From Parasynechococcus marenigrum WH 8102 (GTDB lineage: Bacteria; Cyanobacteriota; Cyanobacteriia; PCC-6307; Cyanobiaceae), in the NCBI RefSeq assembly GCF_000195975.1, contig NC_005070.1, positions 1,500,001-1,532,000 on the forward strand: 32,000 bases of DNA, in the 5' to 3' direction. A model generated the notes under the pieces. That model had not been told where the DNA came from, searched no databases, and saw only the letters and a program-made list of their open reading frames with translations. Position 1 is the stretch's first letter, and each line of letters opens with the position of its first letter. Positions 5,799 through 22,989 of the stretch are shown in pieces. Position numbers and translations under genes: made by a program.

Positions 5799-5805
5799 AC
5801 AACGA

Positions 5806-6070: not shown

Positions 6071-6092
6071 ACACCCGGACATGTCCGGGTGT
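6071..6092. repeat. perfect 22-bp palindrome ACACCCGGACA|TGTCCGGGTGT
   Basis: The first 11 nt are the exact reverse complement of the last 11. No U-tract on either strand. Confidence 0.8.
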
Positions 6093-6144
6093 CATCAGGA
6101 TAAAACATCCTTTTCGCTTGTCGGGCATTGCATTACCGGCCACC

Positions 6145-6237
6145 TCAACAGACAAAGGCTTCAAGCCACACAAAAGTCACCACTGATGCTTTTCCAATCG
6201 CCATCGACAACCACTGGTCACGAAGTATGCGCGTCAT
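6145..6237 (-). CDS. 30-aa hydrophobic peptide, paralogue of 22897..22989
   Basis: [30 protein letters not shown]. Same length and frame as the inverted duplicate at 22897..22989. Differences between the two include 4 synonymous codons. Confidence 0.4.
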
Positions 6238-6238
6238 C

Positions 6239-6280
6239 TCAGCAGTGCAGCTGACCCAATAAATCGCTACAGAGCCTCAT
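6239..6280 (-). CDS. 13-aa mini-ORF preceding the 30-aa peptide (leader-like)
   Basis: [13 protein letters not shown]. The stop lies 1 nt upstream of the next ATG. The equivalent ORF MMFSNDLLGHLHR* sits at 22854..22895. Confidence 0.25.
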
Positions 6281-6297
6281 GGCAAGCGCATGTAGCC

Positions 6298-9200
6298 ATG
6301 CGCAGAGAAAGTGGCAAACTGACTAAAGCTAGTGGCATGGCGATGCAAGGCAAGCTCCTCGAATCGGTACTGGTCCAAGTCCCGACGCAACCTCAGCAAA
6401 AAAATCGGACTGACCTTGAGGCAGAAACCACACTCATAGACAGAGCAACCCCTAGACGAACTCACCAAGAATGGGCGAACAGATCAGCTTTTGCTGCAAT
6501 TAATGCGGACGGGTCCGTTACATCCTGGGGTTCAACATTTGAGGGAGGTGATAGCAGTAATGTAGCCGATCAGATAAGTTCTGGTGTAGTAAGAATCCAC
6601 TCCACTAGACAAGCATTTGCTGCCATCAAGGATGATGGATCTGTAGTCGCATGGGGAAGATCTACCGATGGCGGAAACAGTTCAGCCGTTGCAGATCAAC
6701 TTGCCGGCGAGCATAATAATCAGCCTTCTGTTATTGACATTTCCTCGACGTTAGGAGCATTTGCGGCAATAAGAAATGATGGATCTGTAGTCACATGGGG
6801 ATCGTCTTTCAGAGGGGGAAACAGCAACGGCGTTACCGAGCATATTTCAAGCGGAGTCACCGATATCTTCAGTACACAATCTGCTTTTGCTGCTCTAAAG
6901 CGAGATGGTTCTGTGATTACGTGGGGCGATAGCGATTACGGCGGGGACAGCTCAGCTGTTGCAAGTGACTTGACGGGGGGCGTTGTCAAAATCTTTGCCA
7001 ATGACTACGCTTTTTCTGCCTTAAAGCAAGACGGTTCCGTTGTTACCTGGGGTCTTGACGCTTATGGAGGAAGAAGCCTTGAGGTAAGCGATTCCTTAAA
7101 CAATGTAAGTCACATCTATACAACAGACAGTGCATTCGCCGCACTCAAGGAAGATGGATCAGTCGTTTGCTGGGGACTAGACCTTTATGGTGGCAATCCG
7201 AGCGAAAGTATTGTTCAATTATTATCATCAGGTGTTTCATCCATATCCTCTACTCGTTATGCATTCGCCGCTCTTAAAGACGATGGATCAGTCATAACCT
7301 GGGACGACGTATCAGGCGGAGATAGCTCAGGTGTCTCAGAACAACTTCAATCAGGTGTGACAAGCTTATTTGCCACCGAACAAGCATTTGCTGCTTTGAA
7401 AAACGACGGCTCTGTTGTGAGCTGGGGGTCGATTTATTATGGCGGTGACAGCACTGATTTGCAATCAGAGCTCTCTAGTGGAGTCCATACAATCGTACCG
7501 AACGGCTATGCATTTTCTGCACTAAAGAATGATGGTTCTGTGCTAACTTGGGGCGGAGGAAATCAGGGCGGAGATATCAGTAGTGTTGCCGATGAATTAA
7601 GCGATGGTGTGACAGATATTTATGGCAATGAAAAAGCATTTGTTGCCATTAAAAATGATGGTAGTGTCGTGTCATGGGGTGCACCCAATCGCGGTGGAGA
7701 TTCAAGTGAAGCAAATTTCAGAGGCGGAAGTCCATCTATTGCGACACCATTAAGCGAATTAAATATCTCAGGCAAACCTATTGATGATTTTATCGATACT
7801 ATTCCTGTTCCTACCCCCACGCCTTCACCTGACACGACTACTTCACTAGGCCCAACGCCAACACCGGAATCAACTCCAATACCTTCTGCAACGCCAACAC
7901 CGGAATCAACTCCAATACCTTCTGCAACGCCAACACCGGAATCAACTCCAATACCTTCTGCAACGCCAACACCGGAATCAGCTCCAGTACCTTCTGCAAC
8001 GCCAACACCAGAATCAACTCCAGCACCTTCTGCAACTCCTGATCCGTCTATAGACCAAGAACTTATAGATGATTTCGCAAATAATTCTTCTACAAGCGGG
8101 GTTGTTGTTATAGGGGATGTCTTGTATGGCAATTTAGAATCCATATACGATGATGATTGGTTTAAAGTTTCATTAACCAAAGGAAGTGTTTATCGATTTG
8201 ATCTTGAGGGTATACAGTTGAATGATCCACGAATGACTCTGTATGGGTCTAATTTAAAGGAATTAACTTATGACGACGATGGAGGGTCTGGATATGACTC
8301 ACTCATTGAATTCACAGCAACGTCGAGTGATAACTATTTTATTAGTGCAAAAAGTTGGGGGGAAACTGGCACTTATACATTAAAGGCTACAGATATCACA
8401 CCAGCACCTTCTGCAACGCCAGCACCGGAACCAACTCCAGTACCTTCTGCAACGCCAACACCAGAATCTACTCCAGCACCTTCTGCAACTCCGGATCCGT
8501 CTATAGACCAAGAACTTATAGATGATTTCGCAAATAATTCTTCTACAAGCGGGGTTGTTGTTATAGGGGGTGTCGTGAATGGCAACTTAGAATCCATATA
8601 CGATGATGATTGGTTTAAAGTTTCGTTAACCAAAGGAAGTGTTTATCGATTTGATCTTGAGGGAATACAGTTGAATGATCCGCGAATGAGTCTGCATGGG
8701 TCTAATTTACAGGAATTAACTTATGACGACGATGGAGGGTCTGGATATGATTCACTCATTGAATTTACAGCAACGTCGAGTGATAACTATTTTATTAGTG
8801 CAAAAAGTTGGGGGGAAACTGGCACCTATGCATTAAAAGCTACAGATATAACACCAGCACCTTCTGCAACCCCAACACCGGAACCAACTCCATTACCTTC
8901 TGCAACTCCTGATCCATCTATAGACAAAGAACTTATAGATGATTTCGCAAATAATTCTTCTACAAGCGGGGTTGTTGTTATAGGGGGTGTCGTGAATGGC
9001 AACTTAGAATCCATATACGATGATGATTGGTTTAAAGTTTCATTAACCAAAGGAAGTGTTTATCGATTTGATCTTGAGGGAATACAGTTGAATGATCCGC
9101 GAATGAGTCTGCATGGGTCTAATTTACAGGAATTAACTTATGACGACGATGGAGGGTCTGGATATGATTCCCTCATTGAATTTACAGCAACGTCGAGTGA

Positions 9201-9762
9201 TGACTATTTTATTAGTGCAAAAAGTTGGGGGGAAACTGGCACCTATGCATTAAAAGCTACAGATATAACACCAGCACCTTCTGCAACCCCAACACCGGAA
9301 CCAACTCCATTACCTTCTGCAACGCCAACACCAGAATCAACTCCTGAGCCTGAGCCTTACGACGTCATCATTCAATCAGTTCGTGGTAAGGGTAAATTAA
9401 AGGGGACGAAAGTTGCAGATGCCTTCACTTTCGATAGCTTTGAACCATTCACAAAGAAAGCTGCTGACAAGATCATTGGATTTGAAGCATCGCAAGGCGA
9501 CACAATTGCCGTAAGTCCCGATGCGTTCCCTGCATTGGTAGGTGTCTCCGCTATCAGGTTTGCATCGACTAGGAGTAAGAAGGAATTCAAGCAAATGTCC
9601 AAGGAAGATTACGATTTTGTCTATTTTGAGAAAAAAGGTCGGCTCTACTTCGATGGCAATGGTTCTGCGAAGAACTGGGGGAACAGTGGTGAAGGAGGTC
9701 TCGTGGCAATCCTGAAAGGAAAGCCTGATCTAACTGCTGAGGACTTAACACTGCTTGCTTGA
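6298..9762 (+). CDS. giant secreted/surface protein: 10 RCC1-like repeats, PT/PS linker, 3 tandem PPC (pre-peptidase C-terminal-like) domains, shared C-terminal module
   Basis: 1154-aa ORF. The start is uncertain (ATG at 6298, 6337 or 6343). Ten AFAALKxDGSVxxWG....GGDSS units are followed by ([12 protein letters not shown])x5. Three domains with [14 protein letters not shown]...DP...LY......[10 protein letters not shown]...F.A....YFI....WGETGTY.LKA follow. The C-terminal module is 9361-9762. Confidence 0.85.
7855..8037 (+). repeat. 36-nt tandem repeat x5 encoding [12 protein letters not shown]
   Basis: acgccaacaccggaatcaactccaataccttctgca is repeated head to tail. The first three units are identical and the last two diverge slightly. 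Confidence 0.85.
8041..9330 (+). repeat. three tandem ~417-453 nt units (PPC-like domain plus PT linker)
   Basis: Units start at 8041, 8494 and 8911 (gatccgtctatagacc...). Units 2 and 3 are almost identical by eye. Confidence 0.85.
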
Positions 9763-9787
9763 TAAAACTTCAAAACTGAACACATTC

Positions 9788-9816
9788 TCCCGTCAGCCAT
9801 GGCGGGGTTTCTTATT
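9788..9816 (+). terminator. intrinsic terminator of 6298..9762
   Basis: tCCCG - tcagccatgg - CGGGg followed by TTTCTTATT. Homologous to the hairpin at 5453. Confidence 0.45.
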
Positions 9817-9839
9817 GCATCGGCAGAGCGGGTAACACT

Positions 9840-9950
9840 CAGGACAGTTACGGCTGAACCATGACCCGCGATACCTTCATCGCACTGTTCCTACTGAGTG
9901 AACTGGTTGCTGTCACACCTGAATCGTTACGAGCTGCATACAAGGAGCGC
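9840..9950 (-). pseudogene. heavily decayed thermonuclease remnant (homologous to 5531-5610)
   Basis: catcgcactgttcctactgagtgaactggttgc aligns with catcgccctgttcctaaaggctgaactgtttgc downstream of the first large gene. No intact frame. Confidence 0.4.
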
Positions 9951-9973
9951 GATCTGCTCTCGACCTGTTTATT

Positions 9974-9981
9974 TGTATAAT
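9974..9981 (+). promoter_or_regulatory. possible extended -10 box (TGTATAAT) upstream of 10182..12248
   Basis: Exact TGnTATAAT in an AT-rich intergenic region ~200 nt upstream of the start. No clear -35. Confidence 0.25.
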
Positions 9982-10181
9982 TTTACAGCTAGGACTCTTG
10001 GTTAAACTATTGCGATACTGATGTTTTTCGTGGATCAACGAATGCAATGATTGACAACTGATCTCCGATTCCTGATAGAGATATCTATTTTTTCCAAAGT
10101 TAAATGCATAATAAGTTTTTCGGAGAGGCAATAGTTTTTTGCGATGAATTGTTCTACAATTATTTAAGAAGGAGAGTCACT

Positions 10182-12248
10182 ATGGCCAAAGCCCTCATAG
10201 CTGCATCGCCAGACCGCACCAGTCGTGAATGGCGTAATGCAGCTGCTTTTGCTGCACTTACTGAAACAGGGGAAATCCGTGCATGGGGAATCCCAACTTC
10301 AGGTGGCCTTTTGTCGATTGATGCAGCAGCGCTTAGTGGAGTACGCCAGATCTATTCGACTGAATCAGCATTCGCAGCATTGACTGATCAAGGGCAAGTA
10401 GTTGCGTGGGGTGGCAATGGAGGAGATGCCAGCGCAGTTCAGGATCAGTTGGAAAGTGGTATTCGATCAATTGCATCCACTACAGAGGCTTTTGCTGCTC
10501 TCGATATTAATGGCAAGGTCACAACATGGGGTACTGCGAAATTCGGTGGAGATACAAGCGACATAGCAGATGTACTCAATGAAGGTGTCGTTGATATATT
10601 TTCTACTGATCATGCATTTGCTGCACTTAAAGAAGATGGCACTGTGGTGGCCTGGGGTGACGAGTTTTCTGGTGGATTTAGGGGGAAATCTGGAATAGGA
10701 GTTGCACAAAATGTTCGAGAGATACGTTCTACATCTGGAGCTTTTGCGGCATTATTAAATGACGATACAGTGCAGACATGGGGCTATTGGAATCATGGCG
10801 GCCTTCCCGAGGGGGTAAGTGCTCTTGCATTGGCATCCGGACAAGTAAAAGACATTTTCAGTAATGAGTTCACATTTGCTGCACTTTTGAAAGATGGCAC
10901 GGTAATTGCTTGGGGGAGTCCATCATCTGGAGGTGATACAAGTTCGGTTGACGAGCAATTGATGGATGTGCAGACAATTGTTGGGAATCGAAATGCATTT
11001 GCAGCAATTACGGGTAGTGGAAAAGTGGTTAGTTGGGGCATCTCGGGGGACAATTACGTAGATCAGGGTGATGCCTTGGGGGCGGGTGTGATTAACGTCG
11101 TTGCATCTGATCAGGCTTTTGCTGCGCTCAAAAGCGATGGCTCTGTCGTGACATGGGGTTCCAGTCAATACGGTGGAGACAGTTCTGCTGTTGCTAGTGA
11201 TTTGATCAGTGATGTTGTTGAACTGACCGCTTCTGAGTCCGCGTTCGCTGCGCGAAAGAGTAATGGGAAGGTTGTAACTTGGGGTGACAATGAGGCCGGT
11301 GGGGATAGCTCCTCTGTTCAGCCACAGCTACTGACTGGCGTCGAAAAGGTCTACGCCAACCAGCTTGCATTCGCGGCCTTGAAATCGGATGGATCAGTTG
11401 TGACATGGGGAGATCAGGAATATGGCGGTAACTCACGATTTGCGACTGGTGGTGATCTAGACGATATTGTGAATATTGCTGATGTTTTTACAGATACTTT
11501 CATTGGTGATAATTTCATCGATACCGTTCCGGTTCCAACACCAACACCGGTTCCAACACCAACACCGGTTCCAACACCAACACCGGATCCAACACCAACG
11601 CCGGATCCAACACCAACACCGGATCCAACACCAACACCGGATCCAACACCAACACCGGATCCAACACCAACACCGGATCCAACACCAACACCGGATCCAA
11701 CACCAACACCGGATCCAACACCAACACCGGATCCAACACCAACACCGGATCCAACACCAACACCGGATCCAACACCAACACCGGATCCAACACCAACACC
11801 GGATCCAACACCAACACCGGATCCAACACCGACGTCAGAGCCTTATGACGGCATCATTCAATCAGTTCGTGGTAAGGGCAAATTAAAGGGAACGAAAGTT
11901 GCCGATGCCTTCACTTTCGATTCCTTTGAAGCATTTACTAAAAAGTCTGCTGACAAGATCATTGGATTTAATGCATCGCAAGGCGACACAATTGCCGTTA
12001 GTCCAAATGCGTTCCCTGCATTGACAGGTGCCTCCGCTATCAGCTTTGCATCGACTAGGAACAAGAAGGAGTTCAAGCAATTGTCCAAGGAGGATTACGA
12101 CTTTGTATATTTTGAGAAAAAAGGTCGCCTCTACTTCGATGGAAATGGCGCAGAGAAGAACTGGGGGAACAGCAGTGAGGGAGGTCTTGTGGCAATCCTG
12201 AAAGGAAAGCCTGAGCTAACTGCTGAAGACGTAACACTGTTGGCTTGA
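10182..12248 (+). CDS. large secreted/surface protein: 10 RCC1-like repeats, (TPTPDP)n linker, shared C-terminal module
   Basis: The preferred start is ATG 10182, preceded by AAGGAGAG at good spacing; the track's 10104 start adds 26 odd residues. The N-terminus [26 protein letters not shown] parallels 6298..9762. The C-terminal module is 11847-12248. No signal peptide. Confidence 0.85.
11527..11836 (+). repeat. 18-nt tandem repeat x17 (3 x ccaacaccaacaccggtt, then 14 x ccaacaccaacaccggat) encoding (TPTPVP)3(TPTPDP)14
   Basis: Nearly perfect head-to-tail units counted directly. Every Asp unit contains GGATCC. Confidence 0.9.
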
Positions 12249-12270
12249 CAAAGCTTTAATGCTGATCACC

Positions 12271-12654
12271 ATGGCAAGGACTAGCGCGAAAGAACGTTTA
12301 GCCCGTAGGGAACATGCACTGGCGTTGCTTGCTGATGGGAACAGCTTCAGAACGGTTGCGGCGCTTGTGTCGGGAAAGTACGGGGTTTCTGAAAGAACTG
12401 CTCAACGGGACTTGACTTGGGCGAGAAACAGACTGGTAGGGGAACTGAGTTCGACGGAAGTCAAAGAGCTGTTGGCATGGTTCTGCCATAGAACTCAGAC
12501 CATCGTTCAGAAAGCCGAGAAAGCAGGTGCTTACGGTGCTGCTGTTGCTGGCATGAACCTGATTTACCAAGCGGTGCTGTCACGCGAGCTGGACAGTATT
12601 CACAGCAACCGGCATCGGGGCTATGGCAACCGACACGGGAATTACAAGGGTTAA
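12271..12654 (+). CDS. HTH DNA-binding protein (copy A of a near-identical inverted pair)
   Basis: By homology with 20810..21193 the start is ATG 12271 (MARTSAKERL), not 12259. HTH-like segment: NSFRTVAALVSGKYGVSERTAQRDL. It starts 22 nt after the stop of the third large gene. Confidence 0.7.
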   Translation: MARTSAKERLARREHALALLADGNSFRTVAALVSGKYGVSERTAQRDLTWARNRLVGELSSTEVKELLAWFCHRTQTIVQKAEKAGAYGAAVAGMNLIYQAVLSRELDSIHSNRHRGYGNRHGNYKG

Positions 12655-12887
12655 GGCCGAGTTGCGCAGTTTGCTGCTCACTTCCGTGGTCGCTTTACGC
12701 ACCATGGCTCCCGAAGGTGAGATGCCAATCTGTGTGGCTTATTCCAGATAGCCCATATGGATTACAAGGATTTTTGCCTCACCTGGCTGGTTACGTTGGC
12801 GGCCATCAACACAGTTCTGAATGTGCGCGCTCAACGAAGGCGCTGAGCAGCTTTGGCGTCGTTGCCAGCTTTTACGGAATTGCCTGC

Positions 12888-12989
12888 TCACCGCCTAATA
12901 GGCCGTCGGAGCAGATTGCGGTGGTTCAGGACGCAGGCTGTAATAGCTCCAACGCCAAAGGCGATTACCAAAGTGAGAAAGTGGGTCAC
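12888..12989 (-). CDS. 33-aa hydrophobic peptide (hypothetical)
   Basis: GTG start. (M)THFLTLVIAFGVGAITACVLNHRNLLRRPIRR*. It lies directly downstream of 12993..13142 on the same strand. Confidence 0.25.
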   Translation of the reverse strand: MTHFLTLVIAFGVGAITACVLNHRNLLRRPIRR

Positions 12990-12992
12990 GAC

Positions 12993-13142
12993 CTATTTGC
13001 GGTTGAAGAGCTGCAGAGCCGCATAGATGATCACGGCAAGGATGATGTAGTTGAGCAAAGCCCTGAGGATCGTTAGGCTGAGAAAAATGACGAGAACCGA
13101 GATGGCAGCTCGTTTGACGATGGCCTTAGAGCCATCAGTCAT
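12993..13142 (-). CDS. 49-aa membrane peptide (hypothetical)
   Basis: MTDGSKAIVKRAAISVLVIFLSLTILRALLNYIILAVIIYAALQLFNRK*. Two hydrophobic spans. More plausible than the overlapping + ORF 12717..13076. Confidence 0.35.
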   Translation of the reverse strand: MTDGSKAIVKRAAISVLVIFLSLTILRALLNYIILAVIIYAALQLFNRK

Positions 13143-13213
13143 GAAGCGCCAACGGGGAATCAGAGCCACTACAACGCTGAATATATTTGTCAGTTCTAGA
13201 GCAGTACCAGGGT

Positions 13214-13237
13214 GACCTGCTCCCAGTTCTGCTCACC
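13214..13237 (-). repeat. two tandem 12-mers GGTGAGCAGAAC / TGGGAGCAGGTC (same motif as 15325-15360, opposite orientation)
   Basis: The reverse complement of cctgctcccagttctgctcacc matches the GTGAGCAGAA 12-mers next to integrase 1. Confidence 0.4.
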
Positions 13238-13530
13238 TCCTCACGAACCAAGGAAACTCCTGAAGTGCTGGTGGTTGATCTCAGTGATTGACCACCTGTT
13301 CACATTGCAGGGAGTCACTTAGCCTGTAGTCACTCCTTGGCAGGGTGTGACCTTGGGCCGTGATTCGGTTCGAGGTCATTTTTCTTGGGCAAATTTATGG
13401 TTGCGCTGCTGCGCGATGTGGGCACGCCTGGACCAGATGTGGACACGGCGGGAGTGGTCTGTTGACTGTCGCCACGCAATACAGAGGAATGCGTAATGAA
13501 GGCGCTCGCTAATACCTTGGAGTTCGTAAT

Positions 13531-13779
13531 TCATCTGACCTCCGCAAGCTCTCTACGCACGGAGTCGATGCCGATCATCAACTTGCCGCGCTCGTGGAAT
13601 TTCTGACGGCAGGTGGTGATGTTCCAGCTGATTGAGCTGGCATCAGTTGGTCCGAAGCACCAATCCTGACCAGCGATCAGAAAGCCACCGTTACGGTCGC
13701 GATAACGCTTCAGCGTGCGGGCGCTGTAGCCCAAGGCTGTTGTTGCTGCCGGTGTTGGCAGCCATTCATGTTCAGGCAC
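13531..13779 (-). CDS. Xis/AlpA-like HTH protein (putative excisionase or regulator)
   Basis: 82 aa. EWLPTPAATTALGYSARTLKRYRDRNGGFLIAGQDW is paralogous to 17778..18014 (EWFKTSEAARLCGVSSYWLKENRDISGGFLVIDKHW). It lies downstream of integrase 1 on the same strand. Confidence 0.6.
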   Translation of the reverse strand: MPEHEWLPTPAATTALGYSARTLKRYRDRNGGFLIAGQDWCFGPTDASSISWNITTCRQKFHERGKLMIGIDSVRRELAEVR

Positions 13780-13970
13780 AAGAAGATCAGCGATTTTGTT
13801 CTCTGCTGATCTCTTGCGGTTTTTAAGGAAGTTACTAGCGGACCCCTGTCAAATCCCTTTTGCGCAGTGAAAAGAGTGAACCTTCAATCCAGTAATTAAG
13901 GCAAGGAACAACGTAATGTTGCTACTCGCACTGGGACAAGAGATGAAGCAAAATTGCTCCTAAACAACTT

Positions 13971-15110
13971 CTAGGCGGCTTCCGGGTGTAGGTCAAGGGG
14001 TGACAAGGTATCCCCCTCCAAAGTTGTCCTACCTGCTCCAGTAATCCGTTCGACAGCCTCAATCAAGCCAGCCTCATCAATCCACTGTCCATAACTGGCG
14101 TGATGCTCCTGTGGAGTGTGCCCGAGCAGCGCAGCAGCATCCCGAATCGACAACGGGCGGTCATATGACTTGTGCATCCGATAAGCACAGCCGTGCCCCA
14201 GGCTGTATGGCGTCAACCCTGAGCGGGTTGCTTCCAGGCCCTGCCAAAACCTGAAGCGTTGGAGCTGCTGCCGAATCTCATCACCAACAGGCTTGAAGCC
14301 TTTCTCCTCAGCCTCGTTGATGCGGTTCAAAACGGTCTGAGGGAAGCGAATCGTGCCAGTGCGCCACAGCATCACCAGACGCTCTCCTTCACCTTCTCTG
14401 CCTGGCACGTCGAAGGGCAACACCAACCTGTTCTTCTGTTTCTTGCCTCTAGTGGCTTTGTTCCGCTTGCCACCGGGTCGGACTTTCAAATGCCCGTCCT
14501 CCCAAATCAGCTGACTGACTTCAAGGGGGCGCAGACCGTAGATGCCAATAATCCCCACCAGCAACATCAGGCTGGTCCTGTCGGCATCCCTAAGCGCGTC
14601 GAGCAGATTGCCCAGATCGTTGGGCATCACAGGTGGCGTCAACTTGTCCTCAGTGGGTCTGTCGTCAGTACCGATCAACTCCCGCAGGTCATCTGTTTCC
14701 AGAGGCTTCCAACGGCTGTCGTAACCAAATTCCTTGATCGCGTGCCGCAGCAAGCCGCGAACGTTGTTCATCTGTGTGATGCGCCCTGATTTTCCTGGTG
14801 GGCAGTTCTTGAAATGCTGCCGAGCGAAGGAGCGCATCAGGTCAGCGCCACTTTGGGGACGTGGCTTCTTCGCCAAGGTTTGCTTCACCCGTTCCATGTG
14901 ACGGGTGAGGTCCTTCATCGTTGTTGAGCGGCTGTTCTGCCGCCTTCTCTCGATGAAGTCATAGATGACGGCCTGCCAGCCGCTGTCTTCGTCATCCACC
15001 GACTTGCTGACCGTGGGAGTCGCACCGTGCTGCTTCTGTAGCAGCTGAAACGCCTTTGCGAGGGACTCCTCCCCCTTCTCCATACGCTCCCTGATCTGGC
15101 AAACCACCAA
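13971..15110 (-). CDS. int: tyrosine recombinase/integrase paralogue 1 (catalytic Arg II replaced by Gly; possibly inactive)
   Basis: Box I is GLRPLEVSQL. Box II is PYSLGHGCAYR...LLGHT...HHASYGQW, versus PYSLRHGFAWR...LMGHT...HHRHYGAW in integrase 2. The start is ambiguous (TTG 15110, GTG 15107 or ATG 15083). Confidence 0.8.
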   Translation of the reverse strand: MVVCQIRERMEKGEESLAKAFQLLQKQHGATPTVSKSVDDEDSGWQAVIYDFIERRRQNSRSTTMKDLTRHMERVKQTLAKKPRPQSGADLMRSFARQHFKNCPPGKSGRITQMNNVRGLLRHAIKEFGYDSRWKPLETDDLRELIGTDDRPTEDKLTPPVMPNDLGNLLDALRDADRTSLMLLVGIIGIYGLRPLEVSQLIWEDGHLKVRPGGKRNKATRGKKQKNRLVLPFDVPGREGEGERLVMLWRTGTIRFPQTVLNRINEAEEKGFKPVGDEIRQQLQRFRFWQGLEATRSGLTPYSLGHGCAYRMHKSYDRPLSIRDAAALLGHTPQEHHASYGQWIDEAGLIEAVERITGAGRTTLEGDTLSPLDLHPEAA

Positions 15111-15324
15111 GAAGATGTCGCCACTGTGAGCAGGGTTCCAGGGGATCCCTAGCTGAACCGTTTGGCGTGGATTCTTGTGTTGCTTACCGGCAGCTATCCG
15201 GCGGGTTTAACGCACGCCTCCATGGCGCTCATCGATGCCCCAACCGGGGCCACAACGGTGTTTGATCTGGCGGCGTAGTTCCTTCAAACCACTTGTGCTC
15301 AGCCATGGGGAGCAGATTTTTCCC

Positions 15325-15360
15325 GGTGAGCAGAATTGTGAGCAGAAATGGGCAGACACG
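15325..15360 (+). repeat. three tandem 12-mers GGTGAGCAGAAT / TGTGAGCAGAAA / TGGGCAGACACG
   Basis: 12-nt periodicity read directly. Extra GAGCAG copies lie at 15125, 15309 and 15383. The array sits between integrase 1 and the tRNA fragment. Confidence 0.5.
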
Positions 15361-15397
15361 GGAGTACCCAGGTAGGACACGGGGAGCAGAAGGGCAC

Positions 15398-15420
15398 AAA
15401 AAAAGCGGTCTGATAACCGC
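15398..15420 (-). terminator. intrinsic terminator belonging to the displaced tRNA-Ala 3' fragment
   Basis: On the minus strand: GCGGT - 6-nt loop - ACCGC followed by T7, 33 nt beyond the tRNA fragment's 3' end. Same design and spacing as 24789..24813. Confidence 0.55.
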
Positions 15421-15453
15421 CAAGAAACCTGTCTAGGACAGTGTTTTGAAGAA

Positions 15454-15499
15454 TGGAGCCAAGGAGACTCGAACTCCTGACCCCCTGCATGCCATGCAG
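15454..15499 (-). repeat. 46-nt copy of the tRNA-Ala(GGC) 3' part (distal att repeat)
   Basis: tggagccaaggagactcgaactcctgaccccctgcatgccatgcag is identical to 24848-24893. Similarity ends exactly where the 5' part of the tRNA should continue. Confidence 0.9.
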
Positions 15500-15581
15500 T
15501 ACGTTGCTCGCTAAATAACAACGGTCAAATCGCCAGAAATACTAGGCCAGAACCCAGTTCACATCTGGATTCAGGCGAAGG

Positions 15582-15648
15582 TCGGCGCACAAGACTTATG
15601 GGTTCTTGTTGCTTCTTGGAGCGTTTTGGCGCACAATTTGGCGCACAA
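15582..15648 (+). promoter_or_regulatory. three copies of the TTTGGCGCACAA motif (1 + tandem pair); candidate arm-type integrase sites or iterons
   Basis: tcggcgcacaag at 15582. Exact tandem tttggcgcacaa tttggcgcacaa at 15625-15648. A mirror triplet lies at 24709-24762 in the same orientation. Confidence 0.5.
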
Positions 15649-16928
15649 GCCCTGACCACCTGCATCTCTTGGCCAAAGTCATCTGGTCCGACAACTTGCG
15701 GCAGGTGCTCAAGCGTGAGCACGGCAAAGGTTGGTCAGTCAGAGACCACCGTGGCCGGGTACAGCTGACGCGGATTTTTGAAGACCGTTCACGCAGTGCC
15801 GTTTACCTGCCATTGACTTGGACAGCCGATAACGCCACATCGATCCTCAACACGGTTGCTGCAATTCACGACCTGATGGATTCGCGCAAAGTCAGCCTGA
15901 AAGAAGCTGCCAGGTTGAACACTCAGGCATTGGCAGAGCCAGCCAAAAGCGCCAAGACGGTGGCTGACAAAGGTTGGGATGCAGTTGCTGCCGACTTCCT
16001 CAAGAGCCGTGGTGACAGGCGCAGCAGCACTCTCAGAGACCTCAAGCTGCGGGTTGAACGTGCTGTTGCAGTCATCAACCAGAAGCCCAAACCACGCGAC
16101 GGTATGAGCGTGTTGGAGGCATACGCCGCCGCCTACTTCAAGGAAATGGCACCCGGTGGTCAGGGGCGTAAACGAAATCTGAACGACGTCGTGGCATTCC
16201 TCCAATTCGCTGTTGATCGTTGCGGTGCACCAGACCGTTTCCTGCCACCACCAAAAGACCGCATCAATGAATTGATCGGCACCAGCCCAACATCAACAAC
16301 GGAACGACTGACACCACCAATCAAGGCAGACCAGTTCACTGCATTGTTGGATGCACTGGAAGCTGACGGCCGGCATGACCTCAAGCTGGCAGTGGCGTTG
16401 GTTGGCTATCTCGGGTTGCGGCCTGCAGAGCTGGCAGTCCTGCGTGTTGGTGATGACGAAAAGGCAAGGGTCGGCAGCATCAAGCGCAACATCCAAACGA
16501 TGCAGCAGGCAGACAAGCCGCCACGGTTGGTGATGCCACTTGAGATTGACGGCAGAAACAACGAAGGTGCCCGGGCCATAGCACAGTTCGCTAGTGGACT
16601 GGTGAAGTTGCCGAAAGCACTACGAAAACAGATTGATTTAGTTGAGGAGAAAGGACGTTTTCAAGACGTTGGTGCTGAATTTGCCCAGCAACTTTCACGC
16701 TGCAAGCATTGGCAAGCCATGTTCAAAGCAGACCCGCGCATCACCCCGTACAGCTTGCGCCATGGATTTGCTTGGCGGGCAACAGTGGGCCAAAACAAGA
16801 TTCCGGTAAGAACTACTGCCGCATTGATGGGGCATACAATGCAAGTGCACCACAGGCATTATGGCGCTTGGGTTGACGAAGCAGCCATTGAAGAAGCAGT
16901 TGGCATGCACAACGCTGTCGTCGCTTGA
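15606..16928 (+). CDS. int: tyrosine recombinase/integrase paralogue 2 (catalytic residues intact)
   Basis: GLRPAELAVL (Arg I), YSLRHGFAWR (Arg II), LMGHT, HHRHYGAW (Tyr). The true start is probably downstream of the 12-mer repeats, for example GTG 15705 (VLKREHGKGW). Confidence 0.85.
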   Translation: MLLLGAFWRTIWRTSPDHLHLLAKVIWSDNLRQVLKREHGKGWSVRDHRGRVQLTRIFEDRSRSAVYLPLTWTADNATSILNTVAAIHDLMDSRKVSLKEAARLNTQALAEPAKSAKTVADKGWDAVAADFLKSRGDRRSSTLRDLKLRVERAVAVINQKPKPRDGMSVLEAYAAAYFKEMAPGGQGRKRNLNDVVAFLQFAVDRCGAPDRFLPPPKDRINELIGTSPTSTTERLTPPIKADQFTALLDALEADGRHDLKLAVALVGYLGLRPAELAVLRVGDDEKARVGSIKRNIQTMQQADKPPRLVMPLEIDGRNNEGARAIAQFASGLVKLPKALRKQIDLVEEKGRFQDVGAEFAQQLSRCKHWQAMFKADPRITPYSLRHGFAWRATVGQNKIPVRTTAALMGHTMQVHHRHYGAWVDEAAIEEAVGMHNAVVA

Positions 16929-16962
16929 ACTGCGTTTACAAGATTGCCAACTACTTTTCTCG

Positions 16963-17364
16963 TCAAGTCTTTTGATTTGGTTCTGACGCTTTTGATTTGT
17001 CTTCAGGCGGCTTTTTGCCTGGTGTCGAAGCTTTTTCGCTAACTACGGTTGGCTGTTCACTTGGAGATGCATCTTCTTTGGTAGAGCCTGGGGGATTATT
17101 GCTTATTTCTGAATCTTCGATCTTTGTTGTAGATATTTTTTCTTCGGATGCAGGTGGTTCTTTTTTAACCTCAGTTGCGGGTTTTTCTTTTTTAACCTCA
17201 GTTGCAGGTGTTTCTTTCTTAACTACTGGCTTTTTCTTGGGTTTCAGCTTGCTTGTATCTAAAGACTTTTCGCCAAACGACTTAAATCCTAAAAAGATTA
17301 GCCCACCCACTACTGGGATAGAAGTAATACCGCCTATCGCAATTTCAAATTCGCTTAAGGCCAT
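16963..17364 (-). CDS. membrane-anchored Lys/Glu/Pro-rich low-complexity protein
   Basis: The likely start is MALSEFEIAIGGITSIPVVGGLIFLGF (a TM span). A KKETPATEVKKEKPATEVKKE tail follows, containing a 27-nt tandem duplication at 17161-17214. AT-rich. Confidence 0.45.
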   Translation of the reverse strand: MALSEFEIAIGGITSIPVVGGLIFLGFKSFGEKSLDTSKLKPKKKPVVKKETPATEVKKEKPATEVKKEPPASEEKISTTKIEDSEISNNPPGSTKEDASPSEQPTVVSEKASTPGKKPPEDKSKASEPNQKT

Positions 17365-17545
17365 GATCCATGTTCGATGTTCCTCAAATTTAGCATTATG
17401 GTTGCAAGTTCCCGCAAGTTTCGAGTATAAACTGAGGACCTCAGAGGTCGCCCCTGTCATTTCAAAGGCAGGGTTCCCCTCCTAGCGACTGCGACACCTA
17501 CATGTGTCTGCGGGGACGGAGCCAAGATCACCCCGATACGACGGA

Positions 17546-17806
17546 ATGGCTCGTAACGCAGACAATCGCAAAGGGAGAGGTCGGCCTGTCCGAATGCCTC
17601 AGAACCTTGCCGTCAAAGATCGGCAAGTGGTTCTGAAGTTGGCGGAACAGATGTCCCGCATCTGCAGCAACGCGACTGCAGAGCAGCTGGCAGAACTGGC
17701 TGCTGACCCTGATATTGCAACTGCTCCGCGTTTCTTCAAAGAAGCCATGAGGTCGTTCGGGACACCGCTCCCGACCGATGCAACACGAATGGTTCAAAAC
17801 GTCTGA
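17546..17806 (+). CDS. hypothetical protein with N-terminal basic GRGRP (AT-hook-like) segment
   Basis: MARNADNRKGRGRPVRMPQ.... It overlaps the next gene by 29 nt. Same strand as the replication module. Confidence 0.4.
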   Translation: MARNADNRKGRGRPVRMPQNLAVKDRQVVLKLAEQMSRICSNATAEQLAELAADPDIATAPRFFKEAMRSFGTPLPTDATRMVQNV

Positions 17807-18014
17807 GGCTGCAAGGCTCTGCGGCGTTTCTAGTTACTGGCTGAAGGAAAACCGCGACATCAGCGGTGGCTTCCTTGTGATCGACAAGCACTGGATTCCT
17901 GGCATCACACCAACGTCATCAATTCGATGGCACGTGCCATTGGTGCTGGAAGCGATGCGATACCACGGCATGAATCGCATCAAAGGCGATCAGATGTTGG
18001 AGGCCGTGCAGTGA
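17778..18014 (+). CDS. Xis/AlpA-like HTH protein (paralogue of 13531..13779)
   Basis: MQHEWFKTSEAARLCGVSSYWLKENRDISGGFLVIDKHW. Its stop TGA overlaps the next GTG start (GTGA). Confidence 0.6.
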   Translation: MQHEWFKTSEAARLCGVSSYWLKENRDISGGFLVIDKHWIPGITPTSSIRWHVPLVLEAMRYHGMNRIKGDQMLEAVQ

Positions 18015-18235
18015 TTAAGCGCGCCACCTTCGATGACAACGGCAAAAAAGTGCCGGTGAAACTCACTGTTCGTGAGCAGATGCGTCATGCAGCAGCAATG
18101 GCTGACGACTGCAGATCAAAGCTGCAATGGCACCTGACTCCTACTGCGCGGGAGATGTACGAAGACTCCCTGCTTCGGCACACGCAGGACTGGATCCGAC
18201 TCAAAAAACAAGCAGACCAACAAGCAGAAAAATGA
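18011..18235 (+). CDS. 74-aa hypothetical protein (translationally coupled)
   Basis: The GTG at 18011 overlaps the preceding stop. Its own stop overlaps the ATG of the primase gene (ATGA at 18232-18235). Confidence 0.45.
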   Translation: MIKRATFDDNGKKVPVKLTVREQMRHAAAMADDCRSKLQWHLTPTAREMYEDSLLRHTQDWIRLKKQADQQAEK

Positions 18236-19374
18236 CCCACAACCCAATGGGTCGCGGGCCACTCCCTGCCAAAGATGTGGTCAATTTAGGCGACCCTCTG
18301 CCTACAAAGCAGTGCGTCACAGCACTGAAACCCACTGCAGTACCTGAAGAAAATCTGCCCGACTGGGCTCAATGTGCGCCAAAGAGTGCGCCGAACAGTG
18401 TTTACAACGCAGGCACTGATGTCACTGATGTCACTGACGGTACGGATGGCACTGGCAAACGGCTCACCATTGATGCAGCTCAAGCCCATTGGCATCTGGA
18501 CCTGCTTGGCAGGGATGAACGTGACGTTCACATCAGAGCCATCCCGCACAAGGGCAAACGCGGTTTCGCCATCAATGGCAACTTCGCCATGGACCTCGAG
18601 CGATTCCAAGATCTGAACAACCAGGGCTACGGCCTGTACCTTCAGCCAAACATCGGCGGCACCTTGAAAGATGAGGTCACGCTGTGCACCTCACTGTTCT
18701 GGGAATACGACGACAGACCACGGTCTTAACAGGTTGAGCTTTGGCAATCAACCGTTGGGTTGCAACCCACGTTCCAGATCGACACGGGTGGAAAGTCGAT
18801 CCACAACTATTTGGTGCTGGATACCCCTATGGCTCCGGGGCCATGGACGCTGTTGATGGAACGTCTGCAGTTGGCAGCGCCTGGCTGCGACAAAAGCTGC
18901 AAAGGCAACAACCGCATGATGCGGATGGCTGGTGCCCACTACATCGACCGTGAAGGTAAATCCCGGGGGCGATCACAGATCATCAACGCTGACGGCCCGC
19001 GTTACTCAGCTGAAGAGCTGGATGCAGTGTTGCCACCGTTGCTGGTGCCATCGAAAACCAACCGCAAGAAGTTGCGGACTGGTTCAGCGTCAGTGCGACA
19101 GATCGCTGAAGCGCTCGATTACATCCCACGTCGCGTTGGTGGCGCTGGCACCTACGCCATGTACCGCGATGTGTTGTGGGGGTTGAAGGCTGCGCTTGCT
19201 GATGCCGGTGCAGCCGAGACCTTGGCCATTCAGCTGATGGAAGCGCACAGTCCCTCAGCTCAATGCGATTGGGATGTTGAGCAGGTAGCTCGGTCTGGTG
19301 GTGAGCAGATCGGTGCAGGAACACTTTTCCACTACGCCAAGCAATACGGATGGAGTCGTCATGCAAAACGCTGA
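18232..19374 (+). pseudogene. AEP-type primase(-polymerase) with PriCT-2-like C-terminus, interrupted by an in-frame TAA at 18727-18729
   Basis: LFWEYDD (AEP motif I-like) ends the first ORF. TGGKSIHNY (motif II-like) and RMMRMAG follow in the same frame after a single TAA. The C-terminus GTLFHYAKQYGW is PriCT-like. Confidence 0.6.
18373..18395 (-). promoter_or_regulatory. tandem pair of the GGCGCAC 12-mer inside the primase gene (inverted relative to the end copies)
   Basis: The reverse complement reads ttcggcgcactc tttggcgcaca. Confidence 0.35.
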
Positions 19375-20664
19375 ACTAAACAAAGTCGTTGATGACGCTG
19401 AAAACGACAACCCAGAACTGAAGACCAAAGACTTCATTGAACGGGCAACAACGCTCAAGGAGAACCTCGACACGGGGTTGGAACGCGTTGATCAGATCGA
19501 TGACCCAGCGTTGCGGTCTGTGGCTCTGATCCAGCTACGGGACGAACTGGGCCTTAATCGCAATGAGTTCATGCGCCTGGTGGAACTGCTGTCCAAATTC
19601 AAAGGGGAGCAGCCGCCAGAAGACTTTGATGAACTCCGCAAGTGGACATCAGAGCGGCGTGAACCGCCTGTTGTGGAAGACCTGCTTGGCTCCAGCTGCC
19701 TGACTGTTTGGGCAGCTGATGGCTCTTCAGGCAAAAGCATGGGTGGTTATGAACTCAGCGAAGCCGTAACCACTGGCGGCAAGTTCGCTGGTCAGTTTCA
19801 AGCGCAGGTTGGCGATGTGGTGTTCGTCCAAGAAGACGAGTCACCCAGTGATGCTGAGGTGAAGTGGCGACGTATGGGTTTCAACCCCGACGGCAAACGA
19901 CTGCACATGATGTGGTCGTTCACTCCAATGATGCTTCCGGAGTTAAAAGCCAAGATCCAGCCACCTAAGCAAAGCTGGTGGTGATGGATTCGCTTATCAG
20001 CATTGCTGGCGGAACCATCTCACCAAAGGATGCTGAGTTTGCGCTGCTGCTTTACCGGCTCAACAAGTTGGCGTCGGAATTGGGCGTAGCGATCCTCCTG
20101 ATTCACCACCTCACAAAGGACAGCAACCGCAAAGAGGTCAGCAAAGAAGCCATCTTCGGCAGCGCCTTCATCTACGCCGCTACAGCCGATTGCTGGGGCT
20201 ACTGGCGGTGCGATGAAGACGGCAAACCGCATTTCAAATTGCGGGTGCTGAAGGCTCGTTCCAACACCGTTGATCTGGGCACCACCTACGTCTTCAACGG
20301 CAATGAGGAAGACCACCGCTTGAGCTTCAAAGGCTTTGGTGATCGTGTGGTCAGCCTTGATGAACTGAAGACCAAACGCGACCAGGTGGCAGCCTTGTTG
20401 CATCGCGATGGCAGCCAGAAATGGTCTGGTGCTTGCGTCAGCGACTTCTTCGGTTGGAACGGCAGCCGTTACGCCGAAAACGTGTTGTCCAAACTCTACG
20501 AACAACGTTGTGGCGTTGATCGTGTGGCAATGCCCAGCACTGGTGGCAGGCGGAAATACGCCTACTTCAGCGTTTTGGGTGGAGAAGTGAAAAAGTCCGA
20601 CTTCCCCACAGCTTCTACACCCCCTAAAACCGGGTCAGAAGCCAGTTCGGAACTGGACTTCTAA
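19361..20664 (+). pseudogene. RecA-like (AAA_25/RepA-type) replicative helicase split by a frameshift near 19966-19984
   Basis: Walker A (AADGSSGKS) lies in ORF 19361..19984. Walker B-like VVMDSL and LIHHLTK lie in ORF 19978..20664, one frame away. Joining at ~19969 gives ...IQPPKAKLVVMDSL. Confidence 0.6.
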
Positions 20665-20784
20665 GGATCTTTCACACACTTCTTACTCCTCGTGATACTG
20701 AATGACCTACTGCAACCAATGCAGTTGGTCACTCAATTCAAACCAGCTACCACAGCTGGACTTCTACACATTCTTTCCCACCAA

Positions 20785-20807
20785 TGTGCGCCAATTAGTG
20801 CGCCAGA
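20785..20807 (-). promoter_or_regulatory. tandem pair of the GGCGCAC 12-mer between the helicase and HTH genes
   Basis: The reverse complement reads tctggcgcacta attggcgcaca. It lies 3 nt from the stop of 20810..21193. Confidence 0.35.
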
Positions 20808-20809
20808 TG

Positions 20810-21193
20810 TCAGCCCTTGTAATTCCCGTGTCGGTTGCCGTATCCCCGATGCCGATTGCTGTGAATACTGTCCAGCTCGCGTGACAGCACCGCTTGGTAA
20901 ATCAGGTTCATGCCAGCAACAGCGGCACCGTATGCACCTGCCTTCTCGGCTTTCTGAACGATGGTCTGAGTTCTATGGCAGAACCATGCCAGCAGCTCTT
21001 TGACTTCCGTCGAACTCAGTTCCCCTACCAGTCTGTTTCTCGCCCAAGTCAAGTCCCGTTGGGCAGTCCTCTCAGATACCCCGTACTTTCCCGACACAAG
21101 CGCCGCAACTGTTCTGAAGCTGTTTCCATCAGCAAGCAACGCCAACGCATGTTCCCTACGGGCTAAGCGTTCTTTAGCGGTAGTCCTTGCCAT
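20810..21193 (-). CDS. HTH DNA-binding protein (copy B, inverted relative to 12271..12654)
   Basis: 127 aa. It differs from copy A at 20 nt: 18 synonymous, 1 Ser/Thr change, and the stop codon (TAA versus TGA). Confidence 0.75.
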   Translation of the reverse strand: MARTTAKERLARREHALALLADGNSFRTVAALVSGKYGVSERTAQRDLTWARNRLVGELSSTEVKELLAWFCHRTQTIVQKAEKAGAYGAAVAGMNLIYQAVLSRELDSIHSNRHRGYGNRHGNYKG

Positions 21194-21209
21194 AGCTCAA
21201 TAAAAGTAA

Positions 21210-21797
21210 TCAACGAAGTCCTTCACAGGCTTCACCATCATTATCGCTATCTAGATAGACGTGACCCTCTTGAAGAAGTAATTGCGCTTTATCCCACGAA
21301 GAGATTTCGCTACAACGAAGCCTTGCATTGGTCCCCCTCCTATAAATCCAAGGCCTCGTAATGCCTTGCTTACCTTCTGACCAGATACCTTGTTTGAGAT
21401 CTCTCGCTTGACTTTCCAGGAGAAGAAGATTTGGACCATCACAATCTGAAAGATATCTTGTGTACACAAACACAAGCCCTTTACGCACTAGTTCTCCAGC
21501 TACATCAACTCCCCCTGGAGTAGAGACATGTGCAACTGTGCGGCCATATCGATCTTTTTTGATGGGATAGATTGTAATGGCTGAGTCTGCAGGTATCAAT
21601 CCGCGAAATGCATTCATAGCTAGTCTTCCGTATGGATATTGTCCAATTTCTGGGGCATTAACGCATGCCAGCCTTATTTGTTGCGGGATACCATTTAGCC
21701 TTACGATAAGACTGTCTCCATCAACCACCCTGATGACTTCAGAGGCGGTGAGTGGTTGCGGAGTAAAAACAAGCAGACCTAAAACTAACTTTGACAT
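21210..21797 (-). CDS. secreted thermonuclease (SNase-like) with C-terminal Excalibur Ca-binding domain
   Basis: The start is taken at MSKLVLGLLVFTPQPLTA (signal-peptide-like). SNase motifs: DGDSLIVRL...IRLACVNAPE...DRYGRTVAHV. The C-terminus C..ISSWDKAQLLLQEGHVYLDSDNDGEACE fits the Excalibur pattern. AT-rich. Confidence 0.8.
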   Translation of the reverse strand: MSKLVLGLLVFTPQPLTASEVIRVVDGDSLIVRLNGIPQQIRLACVNAPEIGQYPYGRLAMNAFRGLIPADSAITIYPIKKDRYGRTVAHVSTPGGVDVAGELVRKGLVFVYTRYLSDCDGPNLLLLESQARDLKQGIWSEGKQGITRPWIYRRGTNARLRCSEISSWDKAQLLLQEGHVYLDSDNDGEACEGLR

Positions 21798-21866
21798 CCC
21801 AATAGCAAGCGACTCCAACACATGTCCCCTACGGGCAAAGCATTCTTTCGCGGTGGTGCGTGCCAT
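21798..21866 (-). pseudogene. 5' remnant (23 codons) of an HTH-gene copy fused in frame to the nuclease ORF
   Basis: MARTTAKECFARRGHVLESLAIG is encoded by atggcacgcaccaccgcgaaagaatgctttgcccgtagggg.... This is homologous but not identical to the first ~70 nt of 20810..21193. Confidence 0.6.
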
Positions 21867-22029
21867 CAGAAGTCAGCCAAAGAAGTCATGAGTTTGCGAG
21901 CCTTACCTATTTGCTCTTCTGAAAGACGGAAGTATTCAATTTATTCTCCAATGTTTTGACAACCACTGTCTAGAGGATCAAAGCGCCTTCGAATGACCGG
22001 AGAATGATGGTCAATTCAGAACATTTTAA

Positions 22030-22743
22030 TCACCCTATTGCTAGATCTACTGCCCTTGAAAGAGTCAATCCAAATACGTCAAGCACTACGAATCCATTTA
22101 AAAGTCGTACTATTTTTGAAGTAGAAGTTTTGCATGAATCCCCAGAGTAGTCGAAGCAAGCCTCTGCTGCGAAGAAAAAATATTCAAGAGCCCCTAGCCC
22201 GTCCATTCCTGCAATTGCCGGTGACAGATTTCTTTCAGATCGTCCATGGTTCATTCGCCAATACCACCACGTAAAACAAATCAAGATTATGGGAATAAAA
22301 AGCAAAAGCTCAATAATTAAAAGCACTGGGCTTTTGATAGGAGCCACAAGAAGCAGATTCATTATAACAAGTTCAACGATCCAGCAGGCTGAAAGGAAGA
22401 TAGCCAGTAGGTCAATCGATCTTCGCGCTTTTTTGCCCGATAGTCTCAGTACTATCAGAATAAATGTATACGTAAAAAATCCAGCTCCTATTGGCTGAAC
22501 ATGATTAGTGAGTGCATCCAAAAACGAATGAGATATCTCAAGAAAATTCTTAACCGCACCTTCTTCGACAGCCTCAAGGTCTAAGTTTCTATCAAATTGC
22601 TCAGTAAAAATAAAAGTAATAAGGAGTACGTAAATTTCCCCAGGGCTTTTGATTCGATCAATAAATGGCATTGTACTACCAGCAAGTTTTAAATATTTAA
22701 GCAAAAAAGCCCGGGGCTTCCAACCCCCCGGGCTAGTACTCAT
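22030..22743 (-). CDS. multi-pass membrane protein (unknown function)
   Basis: 237-aa AT-rich ORF with about 5 hydrophobic spans. The start may be M25 (MPFIDRI). The segment EYFFFAAEACFDYSGDS loosely recalls a degenerate pore loop, which is speculative. Confidence 0.5.
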   Translation of the reverse strand: MSTSPGGWKPRAFLLKYLKLAGSTMPFIDRIKSPGEIYVLLITFIFTEQFDRNLDLEAVEEGAVKNFLEISHSFLDALTNHVQPIGAGFFTYTFILIVLRLSGKKARRSIDLLAIFLSACWIVELVIMNLLLVAPIKSPVLLIIELLLFIPIILICFTWWYWRMNHGRSERNLSPAIAGMDGLGALEYFFFAAEACFDYSGDSCKTSTSKIVRLLNGFVVLDVFGLTLSRAVDLAIG

Positions 22744-22853
22744 CGAAAGCAGGGCGCTGTCACGATTAGGCGCGCGAATAAGTCATTGTTAGGCTGAGGT
22801 ATTCCCGTGGCGATAGCTGGCTGATCCAGCTTCTTGCCTGAGCGGACCTTGCC

Positions 22854-22895
22854 ATGATGTTCAGCAACGATTTATTGGGTCATCTGCATCGCTGA
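22854..22895 (+). CDS. 13-aa mini-ORF (leader-like), paralogue of 6239..6280
   Basis: MMFSNDLLGHLHR*. The stop lies 1 nt upstream of the next ATG. Confidence 0.25.
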   Translation: MMFSNDLLGHLHR

Positions 22896-22896
22896 G

Positions 22897-22989
22897 ATGG
22901 CACGCGTTTTTCGTGACCAGTGGTTGTCAATAGCGATTGGAGGAGCATCACTAGTGACGTTGGTGTGGCTTGAGGCGTTTGTCTGGTGA
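22897..22989 (+). CDS. 30-aa hydrophobic peptide, paralogue of 6145..6237
   Basis: MARVFRDQWLSIAIGGASLVTLVWLEAFVW*. Frame and length are conserved in the inverted duplicate. Confidence 0.4.
   Translation: MARVFRDQWLSIAIGGASLVTLVWLEAFVW

Follow-up and report, generated by a model that had tools for sequence, protein, structure and literature searches.

An integrase without its second catalytic arginine as a probable recent pseudogene of an older tycheposon-like element at tRNA-Ala(GGC) in Parasynechococcus marenigrum WH 8102

When a site-specific recombinase lacks one of its catalytic residues, the gene may be dead, may serve another purpose, or may encode an enzyme that manages without the residue. 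This question is raised by a 32,000-nucleotide stretch of the Parasynechococcus marenigrum WH 8102 chromosome (the window; positions 1,500,001-1,532,000 of a closed 2,434,428-bp genome), which contains two paralogous integrases (37% identity over 354 residues, E = 5e-72) on either side of a fragment of tRNA-Ala(GGC). Integrase 2 (15606-16928, plus strand) has a full catalytic set, whereas integrase 1 (13971-15306, minus strand) encodes Gly at the position of the second catalytic arginine, Arg II. Arg II is one of two arginines that bind the scissile phosphate, and without it lambda Int, Cre, Flp, and XerD cleave poorly or not at all. We consider it very probable that integrase 1 is a recently inactivated lambda-type integrase pseudogene, part of an older tycheposon-like element (element 1) located 3' of tRNA-Ala(GGC).

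The substitution itself can be read directly. Positions 14216-14178 of the minus strand are ttg acg cca tac agc ctg ggg cac ggc tgt gct tat cgg and translate as LTPYSLGHGCAYR; integrase 2 has ITPYSLRHGFAWR where integrase 1 has LTPYSL-G-HGCAYR. An earlier sequence-only reading of this stretch had placed a GGG codon at 14196-14198 (minus strand) and noted that it was one substitution away from Arg. Both statements are borne out, the latter because the codon is CGG in the nearest intact allele, from which the window copy differs here by a single C>G change (CGG>GGG). That allele, P0001, is a 444-amino-acid (aa) protein 99% identical to the window copy. It is encoded on the metagenome contig L001, our reference for calling lesions, which matches window positions 15499-12537 at 99.26% identity over 2963 bp. 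Residue numbers below follow P0001, in which the altered residue is R370.

The Gly codon is accompanied by other damage. The longest surviving open reading frame (ORF) of integrase 1, at 13971-15110 (minus strand), begins with TTG and encodes 379 aa, vs. 441–446 aa for full-length relatives. A tblastn search with P0001, which delimited the pseudogene, covered 15278-13974 at 99% identity with one in-frame stop, and showed that the first nine codons (MAEHKWFEG), which follow the original ATG at 15306-15304, lie in a different frame from the remainder. The frame is lost at codon 9 through an extra A at 15279-15280 (+1; minus-strand GGAACTA, where relatives have GGACTA), and a T>A change at 15208 then converts codon 33 from TTA to a premature TAA (L33*, 15207-15209, minus strand). 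With codon 9 frameshifted and codon 33 a stop, the 379-aa ORF is left to begin at a TTG inside the gene, which is codon 66 of the intact allele and a plain internal Leu codon in most relatives. At codon 33, each of the 76 aligned relatives has an aliphatic residue, Leu or another.

Missense differences from L001 number five (M66L, Q89L, H261L, P362S, and R370G), and there are three synonymous ones. H261L (14523-14525, minus strand) falls two residues past the Box I Arg (GLRP-H-E), at a His retained in 21 of 21 close relatives; P362S (14220-14222, minus strand) falls at a column where 72 of 76 relatives have Pro. Taken together, these comparisons indicate that integrase 1 bears three independent lesions predicted to be disabling: the frameshift, the stop, and the loss of Arg II.

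The identification of Arg II depends on a profile alignment to XerA together with a Foldseek family assignment. A profile built from 36 aligned family members was searched against PDB sequences, and its top match was Pyrococcus abyssi XerA (4a8e, E = 1e-4). In this alignment ltpYsLRHgyawR lies over LTPHQLRHSFATHM, with YSLRH on HQLRH, and llGHd..tHlkhY lies over LLGHSNLSTTQIY. R370 is paired with R229 of XerA, the Arg of its H-x-x-R motif, and Y367 with the His of that motif; the residue replaced by Gly is thus placed on Arg II, as had been proposed from the sequence alone. The other residues said in that proposal to be kept (the Box I Arg of GLRP, the His of GHT, and the Tyr of HHASYGQW) are all present in the window copy. 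Arg I is R259 (GLRP-x-E), a residue without variation in the family whose XerA counterpart lies in GLRVSE; H396 (GHT) is His III, lying on GHS of XerA; and Y405 (HHASY) is the catalytic Tyr, corresponding to Y261 of XerA. The 9-residue spacing from His to Tyr is canonical and the same as in XerA. K280, in a K-R-N motif, is also invariant and follows predicted strands at 266-275, making it a candidate for the beta-hairpin Lys by motif and model position.

An AlphaFold2 model of P0001 had a mean predicted local distance difference test (pLDDT) score of 81, and its top Foldseek matches were lambda Int, Tn1549 Int, IntI, Cre, and TelA, with probability 1.0. On the basis of this model, the intact allele is predicted to have the tyrosine recombinase catalytic-domain fold. 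At the N-terminus the model has strands at 22-27, 30-36, and 47-55 followed by a helix at 58-77, a three-stranded sheet plus helix that we take to be the layout of the lambda Int arm-binding domain. In the window copy this predicted domain is severed from the remainder of the protein by the frameshift and stop.

Conventional family models place these proteins at a distance from better-known integrases. The Pfam model PF00589 gave 21.6 bits for the intact allele and 22.1 bits for integrase 2, against a cut-off of 27.1; the window ORF had no Pfam match at E ≤ 1, and an NCBIfam scan of P0001 and integrase 2 returned only noise. Matches to the PHROG_1 integrase family had E-values of 8e-11 and 4e-16. 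Judging from these scores, the family is a divergent branch of the tyrosine recombinases. It also has a family-wide peculiarity next to the Arg itself, P-Y-S-L-R-H (366-371 in P0001), in which Tyr replaces the usual His of H-x-x-R; this Tyr is found in 105 of 113 representatives.

Orthologues keep the Arg, answering a question that the sequence-only reading had posed. It is present in every motif-covering sequence among 102 homologues, and in 75 of 76 relatives of at least 400 aa aligned with MAFFT, the exception (P0102) being misaligned after residue 364. It was likewise found in 10 of 10 column-covering members among those listed of a 219-member 90% cluster, and at about 20 loci in 14 other genomes of the genus, including truncated or stop-containing copies. 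Clustering at 50% of relatives in a library of 1.84 billion proteins gave 146 representatives, 113 of which have a residue at this column; 112 of these have Arg, and the one that differs, a fragment of 190 aa, has Ala within garbled sequence. Gly at the Arg II column was seen in none of the more than 200 relatives examined, and the idea that active members of the family naturally carry it is therefore not borne out.

One relative deserves separate mention. In P0104, from a metagenome-assembled genome (MAG) annotated as Synechococcus sp. YX04-3, the Y-S-L-R motif is interrupted by one extra residue (LTPYNSLRHGSAYR), His261 is replaced by Tyr (H261Y), and several more replacements are private to this sequence; these differences could mark a further allele in decay or stem from errors in the MAG. 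Within the WH 8102 genome there are two further full-length paralogues, at G000:C1:2321295-2322533 and 1180924-1182246 (39% and 31% identity, respectively), both with open frames and Arg II kept.

To polarize the changes we used an intact homologue from G021 as outgroup (79% aa identity, with Arg at the Arg II position) and three alleles from contigs L028, L029, and L030 that are 98.9–99.5% identical to integrase 1 of the window. G021, L001, and L028–L030 all retain Leu33, His261, Pro362, Arg370, and the unshifted frame, and the extra A at 15279-15280 is absent from each. Since both near-identical alleles and the outgroup keep the ancestral states, the lesions of the window copy are derived in this genome. 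Six changes are private to it: two truncating (the frameshift and L33*), three missense (H261L, P362S, and R370G), and one synonymous (S380). M66L is a derived change of L001, and Q89L, L52, and I344 are shared polymorphisms.

The private tally is therefore four non-synonymous changes (one nonsense, three missense) to one synonymous, plus one indel, in a gene where non-synonymous sites outnumber synonymous ones by about 3.3 to 1. These changes look neutral, in that the ratio matches neutral expectation, although the counts are too few for a formal branch test of the ratio of non-synonymous to synonymous rates (dN/dS). Within the family, dN/dS is 0.20 (L001 vs. G021), and the three private replacements fall on residues conserved in the family or the close clade. 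Differences from L001 number 10 in the 1335 bp of the gene vs. 12 in about 1600 bp of non-coding flanks.

The surroundings of the gene give clues to how it came to be in this state. The intact tRNA-Ala(GGC), the integration target, lies at 24847-24921 (minus strand), and a 48-bp copy of its 3' part lies at 15452-15499 (minus strand), where it serves as an attachment (att) fragment common to both elements; 15452-15499 is a perfect direct repeat of 24846-24893, the 3' end of the tRNA. Between tRNA and integrase 1 is element 2 (15500-24845), a younger insertion of 9.35 kb. Its cargo includes integrase 2, an Xis-like gene (17778-18014), and primase/helicase pieces, and it has its own TTGGCGCACA repeats directly inside both ends. 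The replication gene of element 2 is fragmented (18127-20664): four consecutive ORFs of 200, 204, 228, and 228 aa match separate parts of single long primase/helicase families (phrog_3123, 239, 36873). Decay may thus extend to the younger element too, despite its intact integrase.

Past the att fragment, the order on the element 1 side is repeats, the start of integrase 1 (15306), integrase 1 itself, an Xis-like gene, and a helix-turn-helix (HTH) gene. The repeats, putative arm-type sites for integrase 1, are four copies of TTCTGCTCMC (15308-15391, minus strand). L001, L028, and L030 have identical copies, and in G021 all four 10-mers are instead TTCTGCGCA (L007, G021:C75, about 2165-2260). 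Such a coordinated change is as expected of arm-type sites co-evolving with their integrase, and integrase 1 presumably bound these repeats. The Xis-like gene (13531-13779, minus strand; 82 aa) has an intact ORF with one replacement relative to L001, G46D. Its product is related to that of the element 2 counterpart (37% identity, E = 1e-13), and its match to Xis_Gifsy_1 is weak and sub-threshold (E = 0.057).

The HTH gene (12259-12654, plus strand) marks the far side of the element 1 remnant, and its product is 99% identical to that of an HTH gene in element 2 (20810-21193). The two genes are joined by a 380-nt inverted repeat, 12271-12650 and 20814-21193, whose DNA is 95% identical. Collinearity with L001 and L030 stops inside the HTH gene, at about 12537-12564, and L001, L028, and L030 share just the last ~115 nt of it. 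This pattern of identity suggests a mosaic exchange of the HTH gene between elements 1 and 2.

No distal att site for element 1 was found, whether as a third tRNA-Ala 3' end with up to three mismatches in a 23-mer, by blastn-short against positions 1-15400, or within about 6 kb of the near-identical contig L028. The recognizable remnant of element 1 is only about 3 kb long. Its 84% relatives carry a 475-aa DUF3987 gene, which is absent from the window.

Comparison with other genomes and metagenome contigs shows the same site in several configurations. In five metagenome contigs (L001, L025, L026, L028, L030) the intact tRNA-Ala is followed directly by integrase 1 or its 84% relatives, and L025 and L028 run into the same host flank as the window (LexA in both, and OTCase and FtsH in L025). 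This arrangement is the state before the arrival of element 2, or after its departure. Read against these contigs, the 48-bp copy would have been the end of the tRNA prior to the arrival of element 2. The perfect 48-bp repeat and the five contigs with the ancestral order also support the tandem array at a single tRNA that had been proposed from the sequence alone. An assembler jump over the 48-bp repeat would not by itself account for the L001 junction, since five contigs show it independently; coverage is 42x in one of them, and two have 80–84% diverged sequence. We also considered an inversion between the 380-nt HTH repeats as the cause of the head-to-head integrases and rejected it: L001, L028, and L030 are collinear with the window, from the tRNA and then 15499 down to 12537, on one strand, and a plain insertion of element 2 therefore explains the layout.

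Other occupants of the site are also on record. G021 has the same head-to-head pair of integrases at the att fragment, at about 85% nucleotide identity. In L029, integrase 1 faces a third type of integrase across the att fragment (L029 259-1530, minus strand, 423 aa), which is 37.6% identical to integrase 2 and 34% to integrase 1, and G018 has a comparable head-to-head pair. Given these varied pairs, the tRNA-Ala site has been entered repeatedly by different elements.

The resident integrase has been broken elsewhere as well. In L028 (1131-2457), L029 (1891-3232), and L030 (201-1536), the gene has none of the lesions of the window copy and a different one of its own, an inserted C at nt 707 (codon 236). 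This frameshift leaves two ORFs, of 238 aa and 195–200 aa, in place of one, and the 238-aa product is recorded on 18 contigs. From the codon 236 alleles and P0104 it follows that the resident integrase is being lost in several ways in close lineages.

These observations fit a simple sequence of events. Element 1 sat directly 3' of tRNA-Ala(GGC) until element 2, with its own intact paralogous integrase, Xis-like gene, and different arm repeats, entered the same 48-bp att and displaced it from the tRNA. Integrase 1 would then have decayed neutrally, with the Gly as one neutral change among several; R370G may be a passenger and is not necessarily the first or causal lesion. An active recombinase is presumably no longer made, and any internally initiated product would be without both the arm-binding domain and Arg II, so that element 1 would be unable to excise by its own means. 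With three lesions and no distal att, the proposal from sequence alone that integrase 1, its Xis-like partner, and its repeat array are an immobilized remnant of an older element is upheld.

Several findings weigh against this account. All three disabling lesions occur only in this one assembly; the private substitutions are too few to give a significant dN/dS test; the Xis-like gene and arm-type repeats of element 1 remain intact; and, given a public record for the 379-aa protein, an expressed, truncated product may exist. In G021, moreover, the integrase 1 homologue is intact in the same tandem arrangement, and displacement by element 2 alone is therefore no cause of decay.

The restriction of the lesions to one assembly would also be expected if the frameshift, the stop, and possibly the Gly were sequencing or assembly errors in a gene that is really intact, particularly as relatives 99.3–99.5% identical are unbroken at these positions. 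We regard this as very unlikely. The 2,434,428-bp genome is closed in a single contig and 100% complete; only one of the three lesions is an indel, and it lies outside any long homopolymer, the other two being substitutions; divergence from L001 is even over gene and flanks, as in true strain divergence; and the host-side ORFs flanking the elements in the window are long and uninterrupted. Less credible still, to the point that we give it almost no weight, is that the enzyme is active and belongs to a YxxR-type family that dispenses with Arg II or compensates for its loss. The family is indeed divergent, scoring below the PF00589 threshold and having Tyr for His in HxxR as protelomerases do, but the Arg is invariant in more than 200 relatives, none of which has Gly, and the gene is in any case also cut by a frameshift and a stop.

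A use for the protein other than recombination had been offered in the sequence-only reading as an alternative, and it fares poorly here. The 379-aa product, or a shorter one initiated at Met, would act as a DNA-binding protein, modulating integrase 2 at the shared att or serving as a regulator. A long ORF does persist past the stop and is listed as a protein in public databases; it retains the core-binding and catalytic domains with Arg I, His III, and Tyr; the same core att is used by both elements; and recombinase-fold repressors exist, such as MrpR of SPbeta. The structure of MrpR (8a0a) was a weak Foldseek match to the P0001 model (rank 30, probability 0.33). However, the TTG start of this ORF is an ordinary internal Leu codon in relatives, and the native start and arm domain have been lost. 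The private changes, at four non-synonymous to one synonymous, look neutral and give no hint of purifying selection; in sister alleles the break is at codon 236, which would destroy such a product; and the window allele occurs in no other genome. We therefore judge this use of the protein, like an artefact, very unlikely. Somewhat less improbable, though still doubtful, is that the repeated knock-outs reflect selection, either to lock in place the old element together with the adjacent surface-protein island or to spare newcomers at the 48-bp att, or else that the surviving core-binding and catalytic ORF serves as a dead decoy that binds att. The +C at codon 236 is found on at least 18 contigs, and intact alleles persist elsewhere. 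If one of these ideas were true, locking, non-interference, or a decoy would replace plain neutral decay.

With recent inactivation of integrase 1 as the favored explanation, the finding matters mainly for annotation and poses no challenge to what is known of tyrosine recombinase catalysis: integrase 1 is an ordinary pseudogene of a known kind. Its 379-aa ORF is recorded as a protein in NCBI, UniRef, and nr (P0103), and public annotation in this way treats the tail of a pseudogene as a gene, when it would be better called the 3' five-sixths of a pseudogene. The locus is also a clean and datable case of picocyanobacterial island growth, in which an established element was joined by a newcomer at the same tRNA and the integrase of the former then decayed. 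Intact, differently broken, and displaced alleles are recoverable from metagenomes at 99% identity, and these constitute a natural time series of integrase decay.

Each of the known systems nearest to integrase 1 resembles it in some respects and differs in others. MrpR (8a0a) is a precedent for a tyrosine-recombinase fold used for DNA binding only; here there is no sign of a conserved dead form, and the structural match is weak. TelA (4e0z, 4dwp) was matched by Foldseek and shares the P-Y-x-L-R-H form of Box II (KPYGLRH), with Tyr for His, but it is a hairpin-forming telomere resolvase whose N- and C-terminal domains differ and which is not associated with att or a tRNA. XerA (4a8e), the best profile match, can be aligned residue by residue at LRH, GH, and the catalytic Tyr; it differs in being a 292-aa chromosome-dimer resolvase with no arm-binding domain and with His in HxxR.

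With lambda Int (1z1b, 1z1g, 5j0n), Tn1549 Int (6emy), and other heterobivalent integrases, the intact allele shares a predicted three-domain fold (arm-binding, core-binding, and catalytic); the P0001 model matched full-length lambda Int (1z1b, 5j0n) over about 428 columns in Foldseek. Short repeats beside att, similar to arm sites, and a small Xis-like partner extend the likeness to lambda. On the other side, sequence identity is only 10–16%, Y-S-L-R stands in place of H-x-x-R, and the window copy is without the N-domain (through the frameshift and stop) and without Arg II.

In layout, the locus resembles the tycheposons and similar tRNA islands of marine picocyanobacteria. Tycheposons have been described as integrating repeatedly at one tRNA and as having fragmented integrases (Hackl et al., 10.1101/2020.12.28.424599); in Synechococcus, tycheposon-like insertions have a tyrosine recombinase beside the remnant of a tRNA (Grebert et al., 2022, PMC8995045). 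As in tycheposons, a tyrosine-recombinase element sits at the 3' end of a tRNA with a partial tRNA copy as flank, an arrangement seen in full for element 2 (48 bp), whereas element 1 shows the tRNA-side att only. Successive integrations at one tRNA push older elements inward and leave broken integrases behind, and replication genes are present, as DUF3987 in the relatives of element 1 and as primase/helicase pieces in element 2. The differences are that the host here is a Synechococcus, that the target is tRNA-Ala(GGC), and that both geometries occur at one site, with integrase 1 located by the tRNA and integrase 2 located distally, by the tRNA fragment. By layout, then, element 1 is tycheposon-like, the product of tandem accretion with a degenerate inner integrase.

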